Shown one piece after another: positions 2,954 to 39,668 of a stretch of DNA of 39,668 nucleotides. Source of the stretch: Candidatus Saccharimonadia bacterium (GTDB lineage: Bacteria; Patescibacteriota; Saccharimonadia; Saccharimonadales; SZUA-47); contig CALLJT010000010.1 in assembly GCA_938050265.1 (NCBI GenBank), positions 1 through 39,668 of the forward strand. The letters are read 5' to 3'. The notes under the pieces were generated by a model. It was not told where the DNA came from. It saw only the letters and a list, made by a program, of their open reading frames with translations, and did no database searches. Position 1 is the stretch's first letter. Each line of letters opens with the position of its first letter. The position numbers and the translations under genes are program-made.

Positions 2954-3075
2954 CTGACCCACGTCCACTTTTTCCTGTGAGAGTAGTATAAGCGTAGTGC
3001 AGCCAGAGGCATCCCGCCTTCGGGGTGGCCCTGCGCGAAACGCTACTCGATGAGGGAAACGTGGACGTGGGTCAG
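2954..3075. mobile_element. Palindromic ~120-nt MITE-like / structured repeat, copy 1
   Basis: Perfect 14-bp terminal inverted repeat TGACCCACGTCCAC...GTGGACGTGGGTCA. The core 2955-3074 is 120/120 identical to 5371-5490. It lies between the convergent ends of rpsT and holA. Confidence 0.7.
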
Positions 3076-5115: not shown

Positions 5116-5352
5116 ATGGAATCAATCTCTGATATAGCACGTGCGCGCAAACCAATTGAGCCGACGCAGATAGCAGCATTAAAAAAGTATGCTCAAGATA
5201 CGCACAACATCCAGATCTCTGTAAAACAGTCGAAACACATGTACCTCATCTACGTACCGAGTGCCGCATTCGCCCAAAAGTTCAGACACGAAACACAAGA
5301 CATAACGCGCCAATGCGAACTCGACAAGCCACTCGTGATACACATCGGATAA
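5116..5352 (+). CDS. Small hypothetical protein (possibly DUF721/DciA-like)
   Basis: 78-aa ORF from the ATG at 5116; the track ORF begins at a GTG at 5047. The resemblance to DUF721 is weak and from recall only. Confidence 0.4.
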   Translation: MESISDIARARKPIEPTQIAALKKYAQDTHNIQISVKQSKHMYLIYVPSAAFAQKFRHETQDITRQCELDKPLVIHIG

Positions 5353-5370
5353 CCGCTACAGTCCGTGCGA

Positions 5371-5490
5371 TGACCCACGTCCACTTTTTCCTGTGAGAGT
5401 AGTATAAGCGTAGTGCAGCCAGAGGCATCCCGCCTTCGGGGTGGCCCTGCGCGAAACGCTACTCGATGAGGGAAACGTGGACGTGGGTCA
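5371..5490. mobile_element. Palindromic MITE-like repeat, copy 2
   Basis: Identical to 2955-3074. Flanked by the 9-bp direct repeat AGTCCGTGC (5360-5368 and 5492-5500). Its last 3 nt supply the stop codon of the HAD gene. Confidence 0.75.
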
Positions 5491-6066
5491 GAGTCCGTGC
5501 TGTCGAAGCGCCTGTGTGCACGAAGAGATCCCCGTATACAACTCAGCAACCATGCCCACACTGCGTGCACCGTCAACGTTACGCTGTACATCATCAAAAA
5601 ACAGGCACTGTTCAGGCTTGATTGCGAGCTGGTCACTCACGTATTCGAATAAGCGACGATCAGGCTTAACATACCCAACTGCCCCACTCTCGACTATCGC
5701 ATCAAAATAATTGTCGACCTGCTCTGTCGATAGATTGCGAGCCAAAAACCCAGCCCCCACGTTCGAAACAATCGCAGTCTTCAGCCCTCGGCTGCGCAGC
5801 TCTGCGATGACCTGCAGTAGCCCTGGGTCGAGCGCACCCATCTGGTCACGCTCCCGGACGACCTCTTCCAGCTCACGCCCATATATCTCAGATGCAGCAC
5901 GCCAAAACTCATCGCGGTCGATATGACCATAGTTAGCTGCTCGGGCAATATCTGCAAGCTCCTGATCCTGTGCATCGGTCCTGTCAGGGATATACAGATT
6001 CGCTAGCCCCCATAACGTGTCTGCATGCAGCACGCCAAAAAAATCAAACAGCACGGCTTTAATCAT
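5488..6066 (-). CDS. HAD-superfamily hydrolase (subfamily IA-like)
   Basis: Motif I-like VLFDFFGVL (second Asp replaced), then IVSNVG, KPD and FFDDVQRN motifs. ATG at 6066 is preferred over the TTG at 6081. Confidence 0.75.
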   Translation of the reverse strand: MIKAVLFDFFGVLHADTLWGLANLYIPDRTDAQDQELADIARAANYGHIDRDEFWRAASEIYGRELEEVVRERDQMGALDPGLLQVIAELRSRGLKTAIVSNVGAGFLARNLSTEQVDNYFDAIVESGAVGYVKPDRRLFEYVSDQLAIKPEQCLFFDDVQRNVDGARSVGMVAELYTGISSCTQALRQHGL

Positions 6067-6139
6067 GCGTACTAGTATCAAGTACGACCCTCATAAATGC
6101 AATGCGTTCGGCATGCTCCGCACTGCTGCTTGCCTACTG

Positions 6140-7417: not shown

Positions 7418-8587
7418 TCAGTCAAGCCTCGTTACGTGGCCCTGGTCTGCGTCGACTCGTACGTGGTCACCAGTCTTGAGGACTGTTGTGGCATTCCCTG
7501 TGCCAACTATGCACGGTACGCCAAGCTCTCGTGCAGTAATGGCTGCATGTGACAGTATTCCGCCCTGATCAGTTACGATGGCAGACGCTTTCCCCATGAG
7601 TCCGATATACGCTGGGGTTGTTACGGTGCATACTAGTACGTCGCCATGCCCGAACACATCCTCTTCGATCTTGTCTGGATCAACCGTGCGGACAGGTCCC
7701 TCTGCAGACCCAGGTGAACCAACGTGGCCAGATACCACCACCCCTTCCTCCTCAGATCCGTTCGCCGCCTGGTCAAGTACATTGCACTGCTCGTATAACG
7801 AACCAAGGATACGGTTATAGTCTTTGAAAAATACGCCGAACTCAGTCGAATAGGTAGTCTCAAAATATCCCATTAGATACTCACTGGCGAACACGGACCC
7901 GAGCTCATCTGCAAGTTGCTCGCGCAGGTCAGCATCCGAAACGCGTAAGAGTTCCATCAGATCTTCGATATGAGCTTTTGCATTAACGTCCGCTGGTGGT
8001 ACAACCCACTCCGAAAAATCATGGTGAAACGACACTGGTTGAGACACTTCATGAAATCCTTGCGTCAGCTGGTGGTGTCCACCGGCGACAATTTCGCCAA
8101 ACACACCGTTTTCTGTGACGACGAATATCGTAGACCGTTCGCACGTTTCATGTGGGACAAAATCTACTCTATATTTATCGGCGTCGACGCCCTGCTCTTC
8201 AAACCATTCAACAGCTTTACGGACGGTCTTGCCGCGCATGCGAAGTTTCTGGACTCCATCAGCAATAGGTATCAGACGTATCGCGCAAAGCTGATCACCG
8301 TGCTCGTCAATATACTGAACAAATTCACGTGTTTTGTCCCGAACGTCTACAGCGCTAAACTGAACTGGCTTGTCATACGGAAGTCCTGTGACGTCATTCA
8401 GCACTCTCAGTCGCTCGCGTTTGTCTTTGTCTTCTTCATGAAGCTCATCGGCCTTGTCGCTACCGATCTGTTCAAACCACTCGTGCAGACCCTGTTGCGT
8501 TATGTACAGCTTTGCCAGCTCATCATCCTTTGTTGCCACTACTCTTCCTCCTGTATTTAGTACTCCCTCGTGCCTCGTGTAGATCAT
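7418..8587 (-). CDS. PEP-utilising-enzyme mobile (phosphohistidine swivel) domain protein with an unassigned N-terminal domain
   Basis: The C-terminal ~90 aa (GDVLVCTVTTPAYIGLMGKASAIVTDQGGILSHAAITARELGVPCIVG) match the PpsA/PPDK swivel domain, including the catalytic His. Confidence 0.75.
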   Translation of the reverse strand: MIYTRHEGVLNTGGRVVATKDDELAKLYITQQGLHEWFEQIGSDKADELHEEDKDKRERLRVLNDVTGLPYDKPVQFSAVDVRDKTREFVQYIDEHGDQLCAIRLIPIADGVQKLRMRGKTVRKAVEWFEEQGVDADKYRVDFVPHETCERSTIFVVTENGVFGEIVAGGHHQLTQGFHEVSQPVSFHHDFSEWVVPPADVNAKAHIEDLMELLRVSDADLREQLADELGSVFASEYLMGYFETTYSTEFGVFFKDYNRILGSLYEQCNVLDQAANGSEEEGVVVSGHVGSPGSAEGPVRTVDPDKIEEDVFGHGDVLVCTVTTPAYIGLMGKASAIVTDQGGILSHAAITARELGVPCIVGTGNATTVLKTGDHVRVDADQGHVTRLD

Positions 8588-17529: not shown

Positions 17530-19113
17530 ATGACTCGACTAATAGCAAACAAAGTACTACTTGGGACAGCGCTTTTCGCGCTCGCTGGACTACCGGGCAT
17601 CGGTACAACGGCAGTGTCGGCGATGCCCATGAACAAGCACGCATCATCGCACACTCGACCAGAAATGTCACTCGGGCATTTTCAAGTAACCATACATAAC
17701 GTCAGTACGGACCAGCCGCTCGCGCCGGGTATATATGTTGTACATGACGACCGAGCATCACTCAACTTCGAGGGTCAACTCTCCCCTGCTGCGTTTGAAT
17801 CGCTGGCAGAAGTAGGCAGCCCAACGGCTGCTGCAGAGCTTGTAGCAACACTACCTGGTGTGCATGATGTTATCGTAATGGACGCACCAGTCACGCCTGG
17901 CGAAAGCACCACCCTCAATATACAAGCACCAGTTGGCAGTCTCCTCTCTGGGCTACAAATGCCAGTCGCAACAAACGACGGGCTTGCGCTTGTAGATTCT
18001 GTAAAGCTTACGGGTAGATCACAGACTATCGATGCAGCTAACTACGACAACGGTACTGAAGAAAACAGTCCACTTGGCTCTGGATTTGACGGTGGTCAAC
18101 CTGACCCAAGCCGTGGAGCCGAAAACATCGACAACGGTGTTGCAACTGACCCGCAGGAACCGTTTGCTGTTCACCCACAGCTGACAGACACCGTACTGCG
18201 TGTGAGTGTAGACAAAATGAAAAAAGACAAAGCACCGAAATCTCACAGCTACGACGTCACAATCTATAACACGAGCACGGACCAGCCGCTCGCGCCTGGT
18301 ATATATGTTGTACATGACGACCGAGCATCACTCAACTTCGAGGGTCAACTCTCCCCTGCTGCGTTTGAATCGCTGGCAGAAGTAGGCAGCCCTGCCGCTG
18401 CAGCTGAACTCGTACAGTCACTCCCTGGTGTCATGAGCGTACACGTTATGGATGCACCGATACTACCAGGTGAAATGACACAGTTCGAGATCATGGCGCC
18501 ACATGGCTACTTATTCTCTGGGTTACAGATGCCAGTCGCAACAAACGACGGACTCGCACTGATTGATTCGATCACGCTGCAAGGAGAGGCCGTAGAAATG
18601 TATGCCGAAAACTACGACAACGGTACTGAAGAAAACAGTCCACTTGGCTCTGGATTCGACGGTGGTCAACCTGACCCAAGCCGGGGCGCTGAAAACATCG
18701 ACAACGGTGTTGCAACTGACCCACAGGAAGTAGTCGCACCGCATCCGCAGCTCACTACACCAGTGTTGAAAGCCTCTGTTGAGCCCGTCCGCGGTCCACT
18801 ATCGTGCGAACTACACGGCTACAACCGCAATAATATGTCAGAAACGTTTTCGAGCGGCCAAGACATTGCACTACACACCAACGTCGGGCTGAAGGTGCAT
18901 GCACCAGACGCAGTGAGTTACGATTGGTATGTTGATTTCAACGGCGACGACATTGAGAATACTCGCCAGCACGAAGTAGCAGAAGATACATGGAGCTATA
19001 CCGTATGGAGCCATGGAACGTTCACCTACACAGTGAAGGTTACTGATGTACACGGCGAAACAGCTACGTGTTCATTCGACGTACACGTGCCATACGCACA
19101 CGATCGCCAGTAA
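17530..19113 (+). CDS. Secreted protein with two tandem spondin-N-like domains and a C-terminal PKD/Ig-like domain
   Basis: Signal peptide MTRLIANKVLLGTALFALAGLPGIGTTAVSA. A ~190-aa module is repeated (FESLAEVGSP...MPVATNDGLAL...YDNGTEENSPLGSGFDGGQPDP). The C-terminus reads YTVKVTDVHGETATCSFDV. SD is AAAGGAG. Confidence 0.8.
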   Translation: MTRLIANKVLLGTALFALAGLPGIGTTAVSAMPMNKHASSHTRPEMSLGHFQVTIHNVSTDQPLAPGIYVVHDDRASLNFEGQLSPAAFESLAEVGSPTAAAELVATLPGVHDVIVMDAPVTPGESTTLNIQAPVGSLLSGLQMPVATNDGLALVDSVKLTGRSQTIDAANYDNGTEENSPLGSGFDGGQPDPSRGAENIDNGVATDPQEPFAVHPQLTDTVLRVSVDKMKKDKAPKSHSYDVTIYNTSTDQPLAPGIYVVHDDRASLNFEGQLSPAAFESLAEVGSPAAAAELVQSLPGVMSVHVMDAPILPGEMTQFEIMAPHGYLFSGLQMPVATNDGLALIDSITLQGEAVEMYAENYDNGTEENSPLGSGFDGGQPDPSRGAENIDNGVATDPQEVVAPHPQLTTPVLKASVEPVRGPLSCELHGYNRNNMSETFSSGQDIALHTNVGLKVHAPDAVSYDWYVDFNGDDIENTRQHEVAEDTWSYTVWSHGTFTYTVKVTDVHGETATCSFDVHVPYAHDRQ

Positions 19114-22996: not shown

Positions 22997-23071
22997 ACCT
23001 CTAGTATCGTGTATCGTCCTATAAAAACAAAGCATGTACGCTTCGAATGCCCTGTCTGCCATGCAGTGTTT

Positions 23072-23189
23072 CTGACCCACACTCACTTTTTCCTCAAGAG
23101 CAGTATAAGCGTAGTGCAACCAGAGGCGACCCTCCTAAGGGCGCCCCTGCGTGTAACGCTACTCGGAGGGAAAAGTGAGTGTGGGTCAG
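23072..23189. mobile_element. Palindromic MITE-like repeat, copy 3 (divergent variant)
   Basis: TIR TGACCCACACTCAC...GTGAGTGTGGGTCA, a perfect 14 bp. It is flanked by the perfect 9-bp direct repeat GCAGTGTTT (23063-23071 and 23190-23198). Confidence 0.8.
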
Positions 23190-23232
23190 GCAGTGTTTTG
23201 CCGCTTATGATTAAAATGGTAAAATTATAGGC

Positions 23233-25410: not shown

Positions 25411-25603
25411 ATACTTGTACTCCCTTATTTGTAATCCTAATGTATACGAAAACTGTTCACTTGGCAAGCTGACCTGCGCTCACTTTTCTAAACCCAAACG
25501 TTCATAGGGTGACAAGATTGAAGTTTTGTTCTTTAGGAATGATGCCATAGCATCATTTCTAAAGGAAAGACTTCCAGATTGTTAGCATAGGGGCGTTTGG
25601 GGT

Positions 25604-25624
25604 GGAAAAGTGAGTGTGGGTCAG
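25604..25624. repeat. Solo right-end remnant of the palindromic repeat family
   Basis: GGAAAAGTGAGTGTGGGTCAG matches the right terminus of copy 3 at 21/21. Confidence 0.5.
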
Positions 25625-25659
25625 CTTGGCAACACACAAGCACTAAACTAGCCATATCC

Positions 25660-31649: not shown

Positions 31650-31678
31650 AGTATAACAAAAAGTATTACGCTATCCAA
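31650..31678 (-). promoter_or_regulatory. Putative mazEF promoter TTGGAT-N17-TATACT, 6 nt from the ATG (leaderless-type)
   Basis: -10 at 31650-31655 and -35 at 31673-31678. The heptad array starts 2 nt further upstream. Confidence 0.45.
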
Positions 31679-31679
31679 A

Positions 31680-31749
31680 CGTCTCACGTCTCACGTCTCA
31701 CGTCTCACGTCTCACGTCTCACGTCTCACGTCTCACGTCTCACGTCTCA
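31680..31749. repeat. Perfect tandem heptanucleotide array (CGTCTCA)x10
   Basis: Counted directly: ten uninterrupted identical units. They are followed by the palindrome CTCAC-TA-GTGAG, a partial inverted unit. Confidence 0.97.
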
Positions 31750-31809
31750 CTAGTGAGTATGCCCTACTTATCCCCATTCTGAAACAAAATACTATATACT
31801 CTTAGCTAT

Positions 31810-35693: not shown

Positions 35694-35861
35694 TATAGCC
35701 AAAGCAAAACAAAATCAGCTTCTTTTGAATCTTGATCTGAGCGAGCTTGAAAAAGCTGTTTCTCGAATGAAGTATATCTGTAGATATAGCAAGGGAGAGA
35801 ACGGGTTTTTGAGCCGTTCAGGCGAGTTCAAAAGTGTTTGTTTTGTTTTGCTTTGGCTATA
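35694..35861. repeat. Perfect 21-bp inverted repeat pair separated by 126 bp
   Basis: TATAGCCAAAGCAAAACAAAA (35694-35714) is the exact reverse complement of 35841-35861. The right arm lies within the last 11 codons of tag. Confidence 0.9.
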
Positions 35862-38500: not shown

Positions 38501-38618
38501 CTGACCCACATTCACTTTTTTCTCAAGAGTAGTATAAGCGTAGTGCAGCCAGAGACACCCTTCCTAGGGGTGGCCCTGCGCGAAACGCTACTCGGAGGGA
38601 AACGTGAGTATGGGTCAG
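38501..38618. mobile_element. Palindromic MITE-like repeat, copy 4
   Basis: TIR TGACCCACATTCAC...GTGAGTATGGGTCA (one mismatch and one G-U). The flanks GGCAGCACC and GGCAACATT match 6/9. It lies 77 nt upstream of tRNA-Ser. Confidence 0.7.
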
Positions 38619-39436: not shown

Positions 39437-39486
39437 AGGTCGCACGTTCGAATCGGGCCTGGTTTGCAGCCATAAAAAAAGCCGGT
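39437..39486 (+). repeat. 50-bp direct repeat, copy 1 (tRNA-3'-end-like segment plus left half of a terminator)
   Basis: Identical to 39619-39668. Contains GCACG-TTCGAAT-CGGGC (T-arm-like) and ...GCAGCCA. Confidence 0.9.
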
Positions 39487-39504
39487 CAGAAGACCGGCAT
39501 TTTT
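39473..39504. terminator. Bidirectional rho-independent terminator
   Basis: AAAAAAA-GCCGGTC-AGAA-GACCGGC-ATTTTTT. Confidence 0.72.
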
Positions 39505-39618
39505 TGTGGTGCACCCGGCACGAACGTACTCACTGGCTCCCCCCACTTTTTCACTGTTGTCAGCAGAGCCGCCACCGGAAAAAGCTACTCAGAGCGCCAC
39601 TGGCGCTCTTCCCCTCAC

Positions 39619-39668
39619 GGTCGCACGTTCGAATCGGGCCTGGTTTGCAGCCATAAAAAAAGCCGGTC
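39619..39668 (+). repeat. 50-bp direct repeat, copy 2 (truncated by the window end)
   Basis: 50/50 identical to 39437-39486. Confidence 0.9.

Follow-up and report, generated by a model that had tools for sequence, protein, structure and literature searches.

A probable MITE of IS10-like origin at the junction of two convergent genes in Candidatus Saccharimonadales

The element and the junction that it occupies

We analysed a 39.7-kb stretch of DNA (hereafter the window), in which a 122-nt repeat separates the ends of two convergent genes, a small gene on the plus strand and, on the minus strand, a gene whose product matches Pfam Hydrolase/HAD_2. The window belongs to a Saccharimonadales genome, and the PolA that it encodes is 70-72% identical to named homologues. 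The features of this junction are as follows.

5116-5352, plus strand: small conserved convergent gene from the ORF list, 78 aa from the ATG at 5116, ending ...DKPLVIHIG
5350-5352, plus strand: TAA stop of the small gene (sequence reading)
5356-5359, minus strand: relic of the pre-insertion 3' end of the HAD gene (sequence reading; orthologue L003 ends GGA CTG TAG)
5360-5368: left copy of the 9-bp target-site duplication, AGTCCGTGC (direct sequence reading)
5369: extra G between the left duplication and the element (comparison with copy 1 and all other copies)
5370-5491, plus strand: MITE copy 2, 122 nt (repeat family, alignment and fold)
5370-5389, plus strand: left terminal inverted repeat of copy 2, (A)TGACCCAC-GTC-CACTTTTT
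5472-5491, minus strand: right terminal inverted repeat of copy 2, CTGACCCAC-GTC-CACGTTTC as read on the minus strand
5488-5490, minus strand: new TGA stop of the HAD gene, donated by the element terminus (sequence reading)
5488-6066, minus strand: HAD-family hydrolase gene (gene call P0001), 192 aa from the ATG at 6066; the ORF reaches a TTG at 6081
5492-5500: right copy of the target-site duplication, AGTCCGTGC, which still codes for the last HAD codons

The original prediction described the two 9-bp repeats, the left one offset from the element by GA, and a HAD gene that ends ...QHGL-TGA and uses the element terminus as its stop; direct reading of the sequence confirmed both. At the left junction the duplication is followed by GA at 5369-5370 and then by TGACCC, that is, by GA and TGACCCACGTCCAC. 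At the right end the element closes with GGGTCAG, the last base of which is 5491, so that GTGGACGTGGGTCAG stands directly before the right duplication. The 3' end of the HAD gene now reads CAG CAC GGA CTC TGA (...QHGL-stop). The last four of these letters, C-TGA, form the tip of the element (5488-5491), and 5491 provides the third position of the Leu codon.

Deletion of 5369-5500 gave ...TAA CCG CTA CAG TCC GTG CTG..., reproducing the junction that had been proposed for the state before insertion. Its minus strand reads CAG CAC GGA CTG TAG, with the same QHGL end, and the two convergent stops are separated by a gap of 3 nt (CCG). The former TAG stop lies at 5356-5358 (CTA on the plus strand), and 5359 is the third base of the former Leu codon. 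The predicted unoccupied junction is ...CTACAGTCCGTGCTG..., and the empty site made in silico is ...GGATAACCGCTACAGTCCGTGCTGTCGAAGC.... The net coding change brought by the insertion is CTG to CTC, which is synonymous, and TAG to TGA, and nothing else. The HAD protein is unchanged because of this synonymous replacement and because the element supplies C-TGA; the small plus-strand gene was untouched, and neither protein is altered. The original prediction placed the insertion exactly at the stop codon; more precisely, the first base of the duplicated 9-mer lies within the last sense codon, by 1 nt, and not on the stop.

Repeats of this kind rarely flank arbitrary stretches of the window. When random 122-nt segments were drawn from it, a 9-mer was shared between their 14-nt flanks in 121 of 200,000 trials (6e-4), and repeats directly abutting the segment were found in none of the 200,000. 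The left terminus of copy 2 is damaged, carrying A for the canonical C plus an extra G (C to GA). Since this end is altered, copy 2 is probably no longer a substrate for transposase and probably immobile now.

We then compared orthologous loci, where the gene order is an unknown gene, HAD, the small convergent gene, fpg, holA and the convergent S20. At two of them (L002 and L006) the HAD stop overlaps that of the small gene (...TTTAA... and ...TTTAG...), with no intergenic DNA and no element; therefore, the ancestral junction would have had essentially no intergenic DNA. This zero-length junction, seen in orthologues of 51-62% identity, fits the reconstruction; for orthologue DNA in general, the divergence (49-62% amino acid identity) was too large for the exact predicted junction to be compared. 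The small protein is 57-59% identical to its L002 and L006 orthologues, with an identical C-terminus; ...DKPLVIHIG ends the protein in 3/3 genomes, indicating that the small ORF is a real conserved gene. The C-termini of the HAD orthologues align within 0-5 residues of QHGL, and the HAD gene of L003 ends GGA CTG TAG (GGACTGTAG in L003), the very codons of the reconstruction. In the data covered, a strain-level empty site was not found. Both same-species contigs are from other samples and carry insertions: L001 is cut off within copy 2, and copy 1 is present on L084. Exact-protein look-ups with the 197-aa HAD ORF and the 78-aa small protein returned no records, and those with P0001 and holA returned one extra contig each, both occupied.

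A repeat family and its parent insertion sequence

The window holds five copies of the family, with termini CTGACCCAC-NNN-CACTTTTT. All five start CTGACCCAC-NNN-CAC-TTTT, and the other end is the reverse complement. Apart from copy 2, these are the following.

2954-3075, plus strand: MITE copy 1, in the S20/holA convergent junction; no recognisable duplication (CCGTTCCAA / CCTGTTTGT)
23063-23071 and 23190-23198: duplication of copy 3, GCAGTGTTT, abutting both ends
23072-23189, plus strand: MITE copy 3, 118 nt, with this perfect abutting 9-bp duplication
25469-25624 (with flanks 25460-25633), plus strand: related MITE of 156 nt with the same terminal repeats; flanks CTTGGCAAG / CTTGGCAAC, 8/9 matching
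38501-38618, plus strand: MITE copy 5, 118 nt, upstream of tRNA-Ser; decayed flanks GGCAGCACC / GGCAACATT, 6/9 matching

Copies 1 and 2 are identical at 121/121 positions, copies 3 and 5 are about 87% identical to them, and the interior of the 156-nt MITE is unrelated to that of the other window copies. The elements are 116-156 nt long, below the limit of roughly 300 bp for a MITE, with stops in most frames and no coding capacity. Copy 2 folds as a long imperfect hairpin (-71.9 kcal/mol, z = -9.3). An Rfam 15 search with the element gave nothing at the gathering score, and at an E-value threshold only a chance match to SNORD75 (E = 0.21). A hammerhead or kink-turn reading of CGATGAG/GAAAC, made by eye, was rejected, as the motifs are missing from copies 3 and 5. 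The four window-type copies (1, 2, 3 and 5) are all in one orientation, and invariant G-U pairs give the RNA of the plus strand an advantage in folding stability of about 13 kcal/mol over that of the minus strand; a G-U wobble bias in the arms, considered by eye as a sign of selection at the RNA level, was inconsistent across copies. Copy 1 lacks a target duplication despite its identity to copy 2, and it is also present in the contig from the other sample (L084). Its neighbours, S20 and holA, overlap by 11 bp in orthologue L003.

To look for relatives, we used the terminal-repeat pattern, which carries 36 bits, to scan prokaryotic genomes, one for each species. The scan matched 42 loci, of which about 20 are chance (17 expected); over the metagenome and genome scans together, about half of the matches were chance, as expected. 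One Candidatus Saccharimonadales MAG, JTS-RE396, accounted for 19 of the 42 loci, and two other Saccharibacteria MAGs for 3. Complete MITEs of 116 nt number at least 13 in JTS-RE396; they share the terminal repeats but have yet another filler. Seven of these have perfect abutting 9-bp duplications, all different in sequence, and three show flank matches of 7-8/9. Another copy in this MAG, L034, combines a perfect duplication with a damaged terminus; the flanks of L036 are partly decayed, and L047 has mismatched arms and no duplication, and is therefore a recombinant of two copies. The filler of the window type was not found elsewhere in the metagenome and genome scans with the terminal-repeat pattern, and a scan of viral contigs with it gave one chance match.

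The metagenome scan and transposase homologues further revealed an autonomous partner, present in metagenomes and Saccharimonadales MAGs. Nine full-length copies of this insertion sequence (IS), 1135-1161 bp long, have a perfect 20-bp terminal repeat, CTGACCCACACTCACTTTTT, and each contains a single ORF for a protein of about 349 aa. Four of the nine (L061, L078, L079 and L082) are flanked by perfect 9-bp target duplications. Perfect 9-bp duplications also flank 12 other MITE copies and copy 3 of the window, and every one of them has its own sequence; therefore, the repeat is target DNA and not part of the element. The possibility that the duplication belongs to the element was looked at in these other copies, and their 9-bp flanks all differ. 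A consensus drawn from 18 duplications showed no clear motif, with GC slightly raised (56% versus 50%).

The MITE and IS ends correspond closely. Copy 3 matches the IS terminal repeat at 20/20 positions in its left arm and 19/20 in its right arm, and the left repeat of copy 2 equals it except for the triplet at positions 10-12 and for base 1. Both MITE arms look like the right end of the IS (...CCTCC past the terminal repeat). CTGA ends are common to MITE and IS, and the ends of IS10 and IS50 also begin CTGA. The ORF of the IS ends 11 nt from the IS end, the TGA stop of the transposase being positions 14-12 of the right terminal repeat.

The transposase matches Pfam DDE_Tnp_1 (PF01609) with 33.5 bits against a gathering score of 23. 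Its best NCBIfam model is NF033591 (IS4), with 87.7 bits, below the curated cut-off of 152; this score points to a divergent or new IS4 subgroup. The Y-x2-R-x3-E-x6-K (YREK) signature is present in 119 of 120 transposase homologues (YAERFEIEEAFKDVK at residue 253), and the region around it aligns weakly with residues 282-359 of the Tn5 transposase (E = 0.15). There are at least 500 homologues, mostly on contigs of about 1.2 kb, and the one named match is Candidatus Saccharimonadales. Direct repeats of about 9-10 bp are a mark of the IS4 family, CT ends are typical of its IS10 and IS50 subgroups (PMC2266710), and the IS10 subgroup is defined by CT ends, YREK and 9-bp direct repeats (PMC2266710, Table 1), all of which we found in the parent IS. 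Taken together, the sequences suggest that the parent is an IS4-family, IS10-like IS, widespread in Candidatus Saccharimonadales.

We consider it very probable that copy 2 is a non-coding, hairpin-forming MITE from this IS4-family (IS10-like) IS of about 1.14 kb, inserted with a 9-bp duplication. The family-level evidence supports the transposition-type insertion, with target duplication and preserved frame, that had been put forward from the single locus. Because neither a transposase nor a full-length IS was found in the window, mobilisation would have occurred in trans. By analogy with Tn5 and Tn10, the IS transposase, encoded outside the window, would recognise the 20-bp ends, excise the element and insert it into a 9-bp staggered cut (cut-and-paste), and gap repair would then produce the duplication. 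The other steps can be read from the sequence. The target 9-mer was the AGTCCGTGC at the very end of the HAD gene, in a junction where this gene and the small convergent gene were 3 nt apart. The right duplicate stayed joined to the HAD gene, the terminal G of the element (C on the coding strand) completing the last Leu codon synonymously and the next three bases becoming the new stop; the old stop and left duplicate persist as a 13-nt relic. The insertion probably survived purifying selection because both proteins remained unchanged in the tight junction, a rare position and frame harming neither gene. Several points stand against this reading: the negative searches for a transposase or full-length IS in the window and for a strain-level empty site, the non-canonical left junction of copy 2 (GA for C), the lack of a duplication at the identical copy 1, the GTC at positions 10-12 in copies 1 and 2, and the transposase score of 87.7 against the IS4 cut-off of 152.

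Competing explanations and known systems

According to the original prediction, moreover, the terminal TGA means that insertion at the end of a gene need not lengthen its protein. This is true of one of three frames at each end, where the TGA is an immediate stop; in the other frames 8-11 codons are gained, or no stop is met across the element. A broader version of the idea is that the mobile element has also been co-opted, the hairpin acting as a transcript 3' end or bidirectional barrier and C-TGA being kept as portable stops in compact genomes. We regard such co-option as unlikely. Copies 1 and 2 both lie in convergent junctions, and several JTS-RE396 copies lie 10-17 nt past the stop of a long ORF. 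However, further copies are found in divergent promoter regions and between tandem genes, and purifying selection alone would, in a gene-dense genome, place copies near gene 3' ends. For the same reason we set aside stop-proximal targeting, for which a crude ORF-based test was suggestive, the pattern being explained by such selection. The hairpin is preserved by compensatory changes, folding energies favour the plus strand over the minus strand (-71.9 versus -58.7 kcal/mol) through its invariant G-U pairs, and the common orientation of the four window-type copies would also suit co-option. Yet a promoter/terminator scan found no such site, the stem is not followed by a U-tract, and the filler is unrelated between family members, hence no specific RNA is conserved. 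As to the stops, copy 2 is the only one of 19 copies examined whose terminal TGA ends a real gene. CTGA ends are shared with the parent IS; therefore, the TGA is inherited from the parent. From the sequences at hand, the portable stop is not a demonstrated adaptation of the MITE.

The strong conserved hairpin with its compensatory substitutions could, alternatively, belong to a structured ncRNA gene, or to a REP/BIME/PATE-like palindrome that spreads without a DDE transposase, the flanking 9-mers being coincidental. This we find highly improbable. No Rfam family matches the element and the interiors are interchangeable; many copies carry perfect abutting 9-bp duplications, all different, against a chance frequency of 0/200,000, and identical terminal repeats bound an IS that encodes a transposase and itself produces such duplications. 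REP/BIME elements or a PATE of IS200/IS605 type (no duplication, Y1/HUH) were rejected on the presence of the 9-bp duplications and on the associated transposase, which is of the DDE type. Origin from another transposon family with 8-9 bp duplications (IS1, IS256, ISAs1 or Mutator-like), the likeness to the IS being accidental, is likewise highly improbable in our view. In its favour, a 9-bp duplication alone is not diagnostic; against it, the terminal repeat is identical at 20/20 positions to that of an IS whose transposase has DDE_Tnp_1 and YREK, and no other transposase type was associated with these ends.

With the MITE reading preferred, the closest described analogue is the MITEAba12/ISAba12 pair of Acinetobacter. 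Like the present elements, MITEAba12 is non-coding (about 113 bp), its terminal repeats match a co-resident IS, and its 9-bp target duplications are intact in just a fraction of copies (PMC6382973). It has stops in all frames, and cases are documented in which it is fused with a neighbouring gene, at the 3' or the 5' end (PMC6382973). In contrast, its terminal repeats (GGCTTTGTTGCACAAA) and parent IS are unrelated to those found here, the structure predicted for it is weak (about -24 to -27 kcal/mol) when compared with the near-perfect hairpin here (-72 kcal/mol), its host is a proteobacterium, and in the 3' fusion reported for it the gene was cut short (PMC6382973). At the present locus the protein is preserved exactly. 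The parent IS, for its part, resembles the IS10/IS50 subgroups in its 5'-CT ends, DDE and YREK residues, 9-bp direct repeats and compact single ORF (PMC2266710). At 1135-1161 bp it is, however, shorter than the 1200-1350 bp of the IS10 subgroup, and its host phylum, Saccharibacteria, is absent from the phyla listed for the IS10/IS50 subgroups (PMC2266710).

In the literature searched, we found no description of a MITE or of an IS4-family element in Saccharibacteria or other CPR bacteria. The genomes of Saccharibacteria and other CPR are roughly 1 Mb and gene-dense. Palindromic hairpin repeats of 100-150 bp at or inside gene ends include the Correia elements of Neisseria, the RPEs of Rickettsia and ERIC; they are co-transcribed with their neighbours and sometimes change or supply gene termini. 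Correia elements duplicate TA, not 9 bp, and RPEs insert in frame within genes. None of the three is known to have an IS4-family parent IS or any sequence relationship to the element described here.

The MITE/IS pair is previously undescribed, but its biology is that of ordinary bacterial MITEs and is unsurprising to a specialist; the understanding of MITEs in general is unchanged. The results suggest that the pair is active, or was recently so, in the Saccharimonadales lineage. The locus also shows that a MITE can settle where two genes have virtually no DNA between them, through replacement of the stop codon and of a third base whose change is synonymous. In practice, the stop of the HAD gene will be called within a repeat, and the element can serve as a strain marker. 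Many Saccharibacteria MAG contigs were seen to start or end inside the IS/MITE family: L009 and L019 (JABCZM01), L007, L010, L011, L027 and L001. These repeats are accordingly a frequent cause of metagenomic assembly breaks in Saccharibacteria.

Co-variation of the arms and minor observations

Positions 10-12 of the MITE terminal repeat occur in at least seven forms (ACT, GTC, ATT, ACC, TAG, ATG and GCT). Both arms of one MITE copy nearly always carry the same triplet, with a per-position agreement of 16-17/19, and position 21 and an apical stem pair co-vary too. Arms of the ATG type were found in three MITEs with unrelated fillers. The parent IS has ACT in 16 of 18 arms of the nine copies, and copies 1 and 2 carry GTC, whereas the sampled full-length IS all have ACT or CCT. 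We found no complete IS with a non-ACT triplet, just an IS-like end of the GTC type at the start of a contig (L010).

These patterns suggest that the arms of each MITE copy evolve in concert. Possible causes are correction of quasi-palindromes by template switching, selection on the hairpin, or cognate transposase variants. In Tn5, positions 10-12 serve as an address that distinguishes outside from inside ends. It is conceivable, though we think it rather doubtful, that the hairpin or cruciform MITE, and not the linear duplex, is selected or used as the transposition substrate, or that the triplet is an address by which each MITE sub-lineage is matched to its cognate transposase variant. Of all aspects of this family, only this concerted evolution might lead somewhere new. 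We also considered by eye, and rejected, that the variable triplet is tied to the target sequence.

A second observation concerns the outermost bases. In L034, positions 7651-7652 read TA-GACCC in place of CT-GACCC, with the duplication intact, which parallels the GA-TGACCC of copy 2 at 5369-5370. Two of the 19 MITE copies are, in this way, changed exactly at the terminal cleavage dinucleotide, with the duplication and the rest of the element intact. Speculatively, damage confined to the cleavage site may be the scar of aborted excision; copies that carry it should be immobile.

Several other features of the window were noted. A perfect direct repeat of 50 nt (39438-39487 and 39619-39668, spaced by 181 nt) extends up to the end of the contig. 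It resembles the T-arm, acceptor and CCA end of a tRNA or tmRNA with an intrinsic-terminator hairpin (AAAAAAAGCCGGTC...GACCGGCATTTTTT) behind it. ARAGORN called no gene at this repeat (39438-39668); duplication of an att site is one possible explanation, an artefact of assembly another. At 35694-35714 and 35841-35861, a perfect 21-nt inverted repeat (TATAGCCAAAGCAAAACAAAA) around 126 nt may be another small palindromic element, and at 31665-31755, between genes, the heptamer ACGTCTC is repeated in tandem about 10-12 times. Within the ORF at 17530-19113 (527 aa, with no Pfam match), two segments of about 150-176 nt at 17686-18755 are each repeated 570 nt downstream (start-to-start) with 87-88% identity. 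Finally, the ribosomal protein S20 ORF at 2303-2914 encodes 203 aa, including a C-terminal extension with a weak helix-hairpin-helix match; its orthologue in L003 and L004 has 85 aa.
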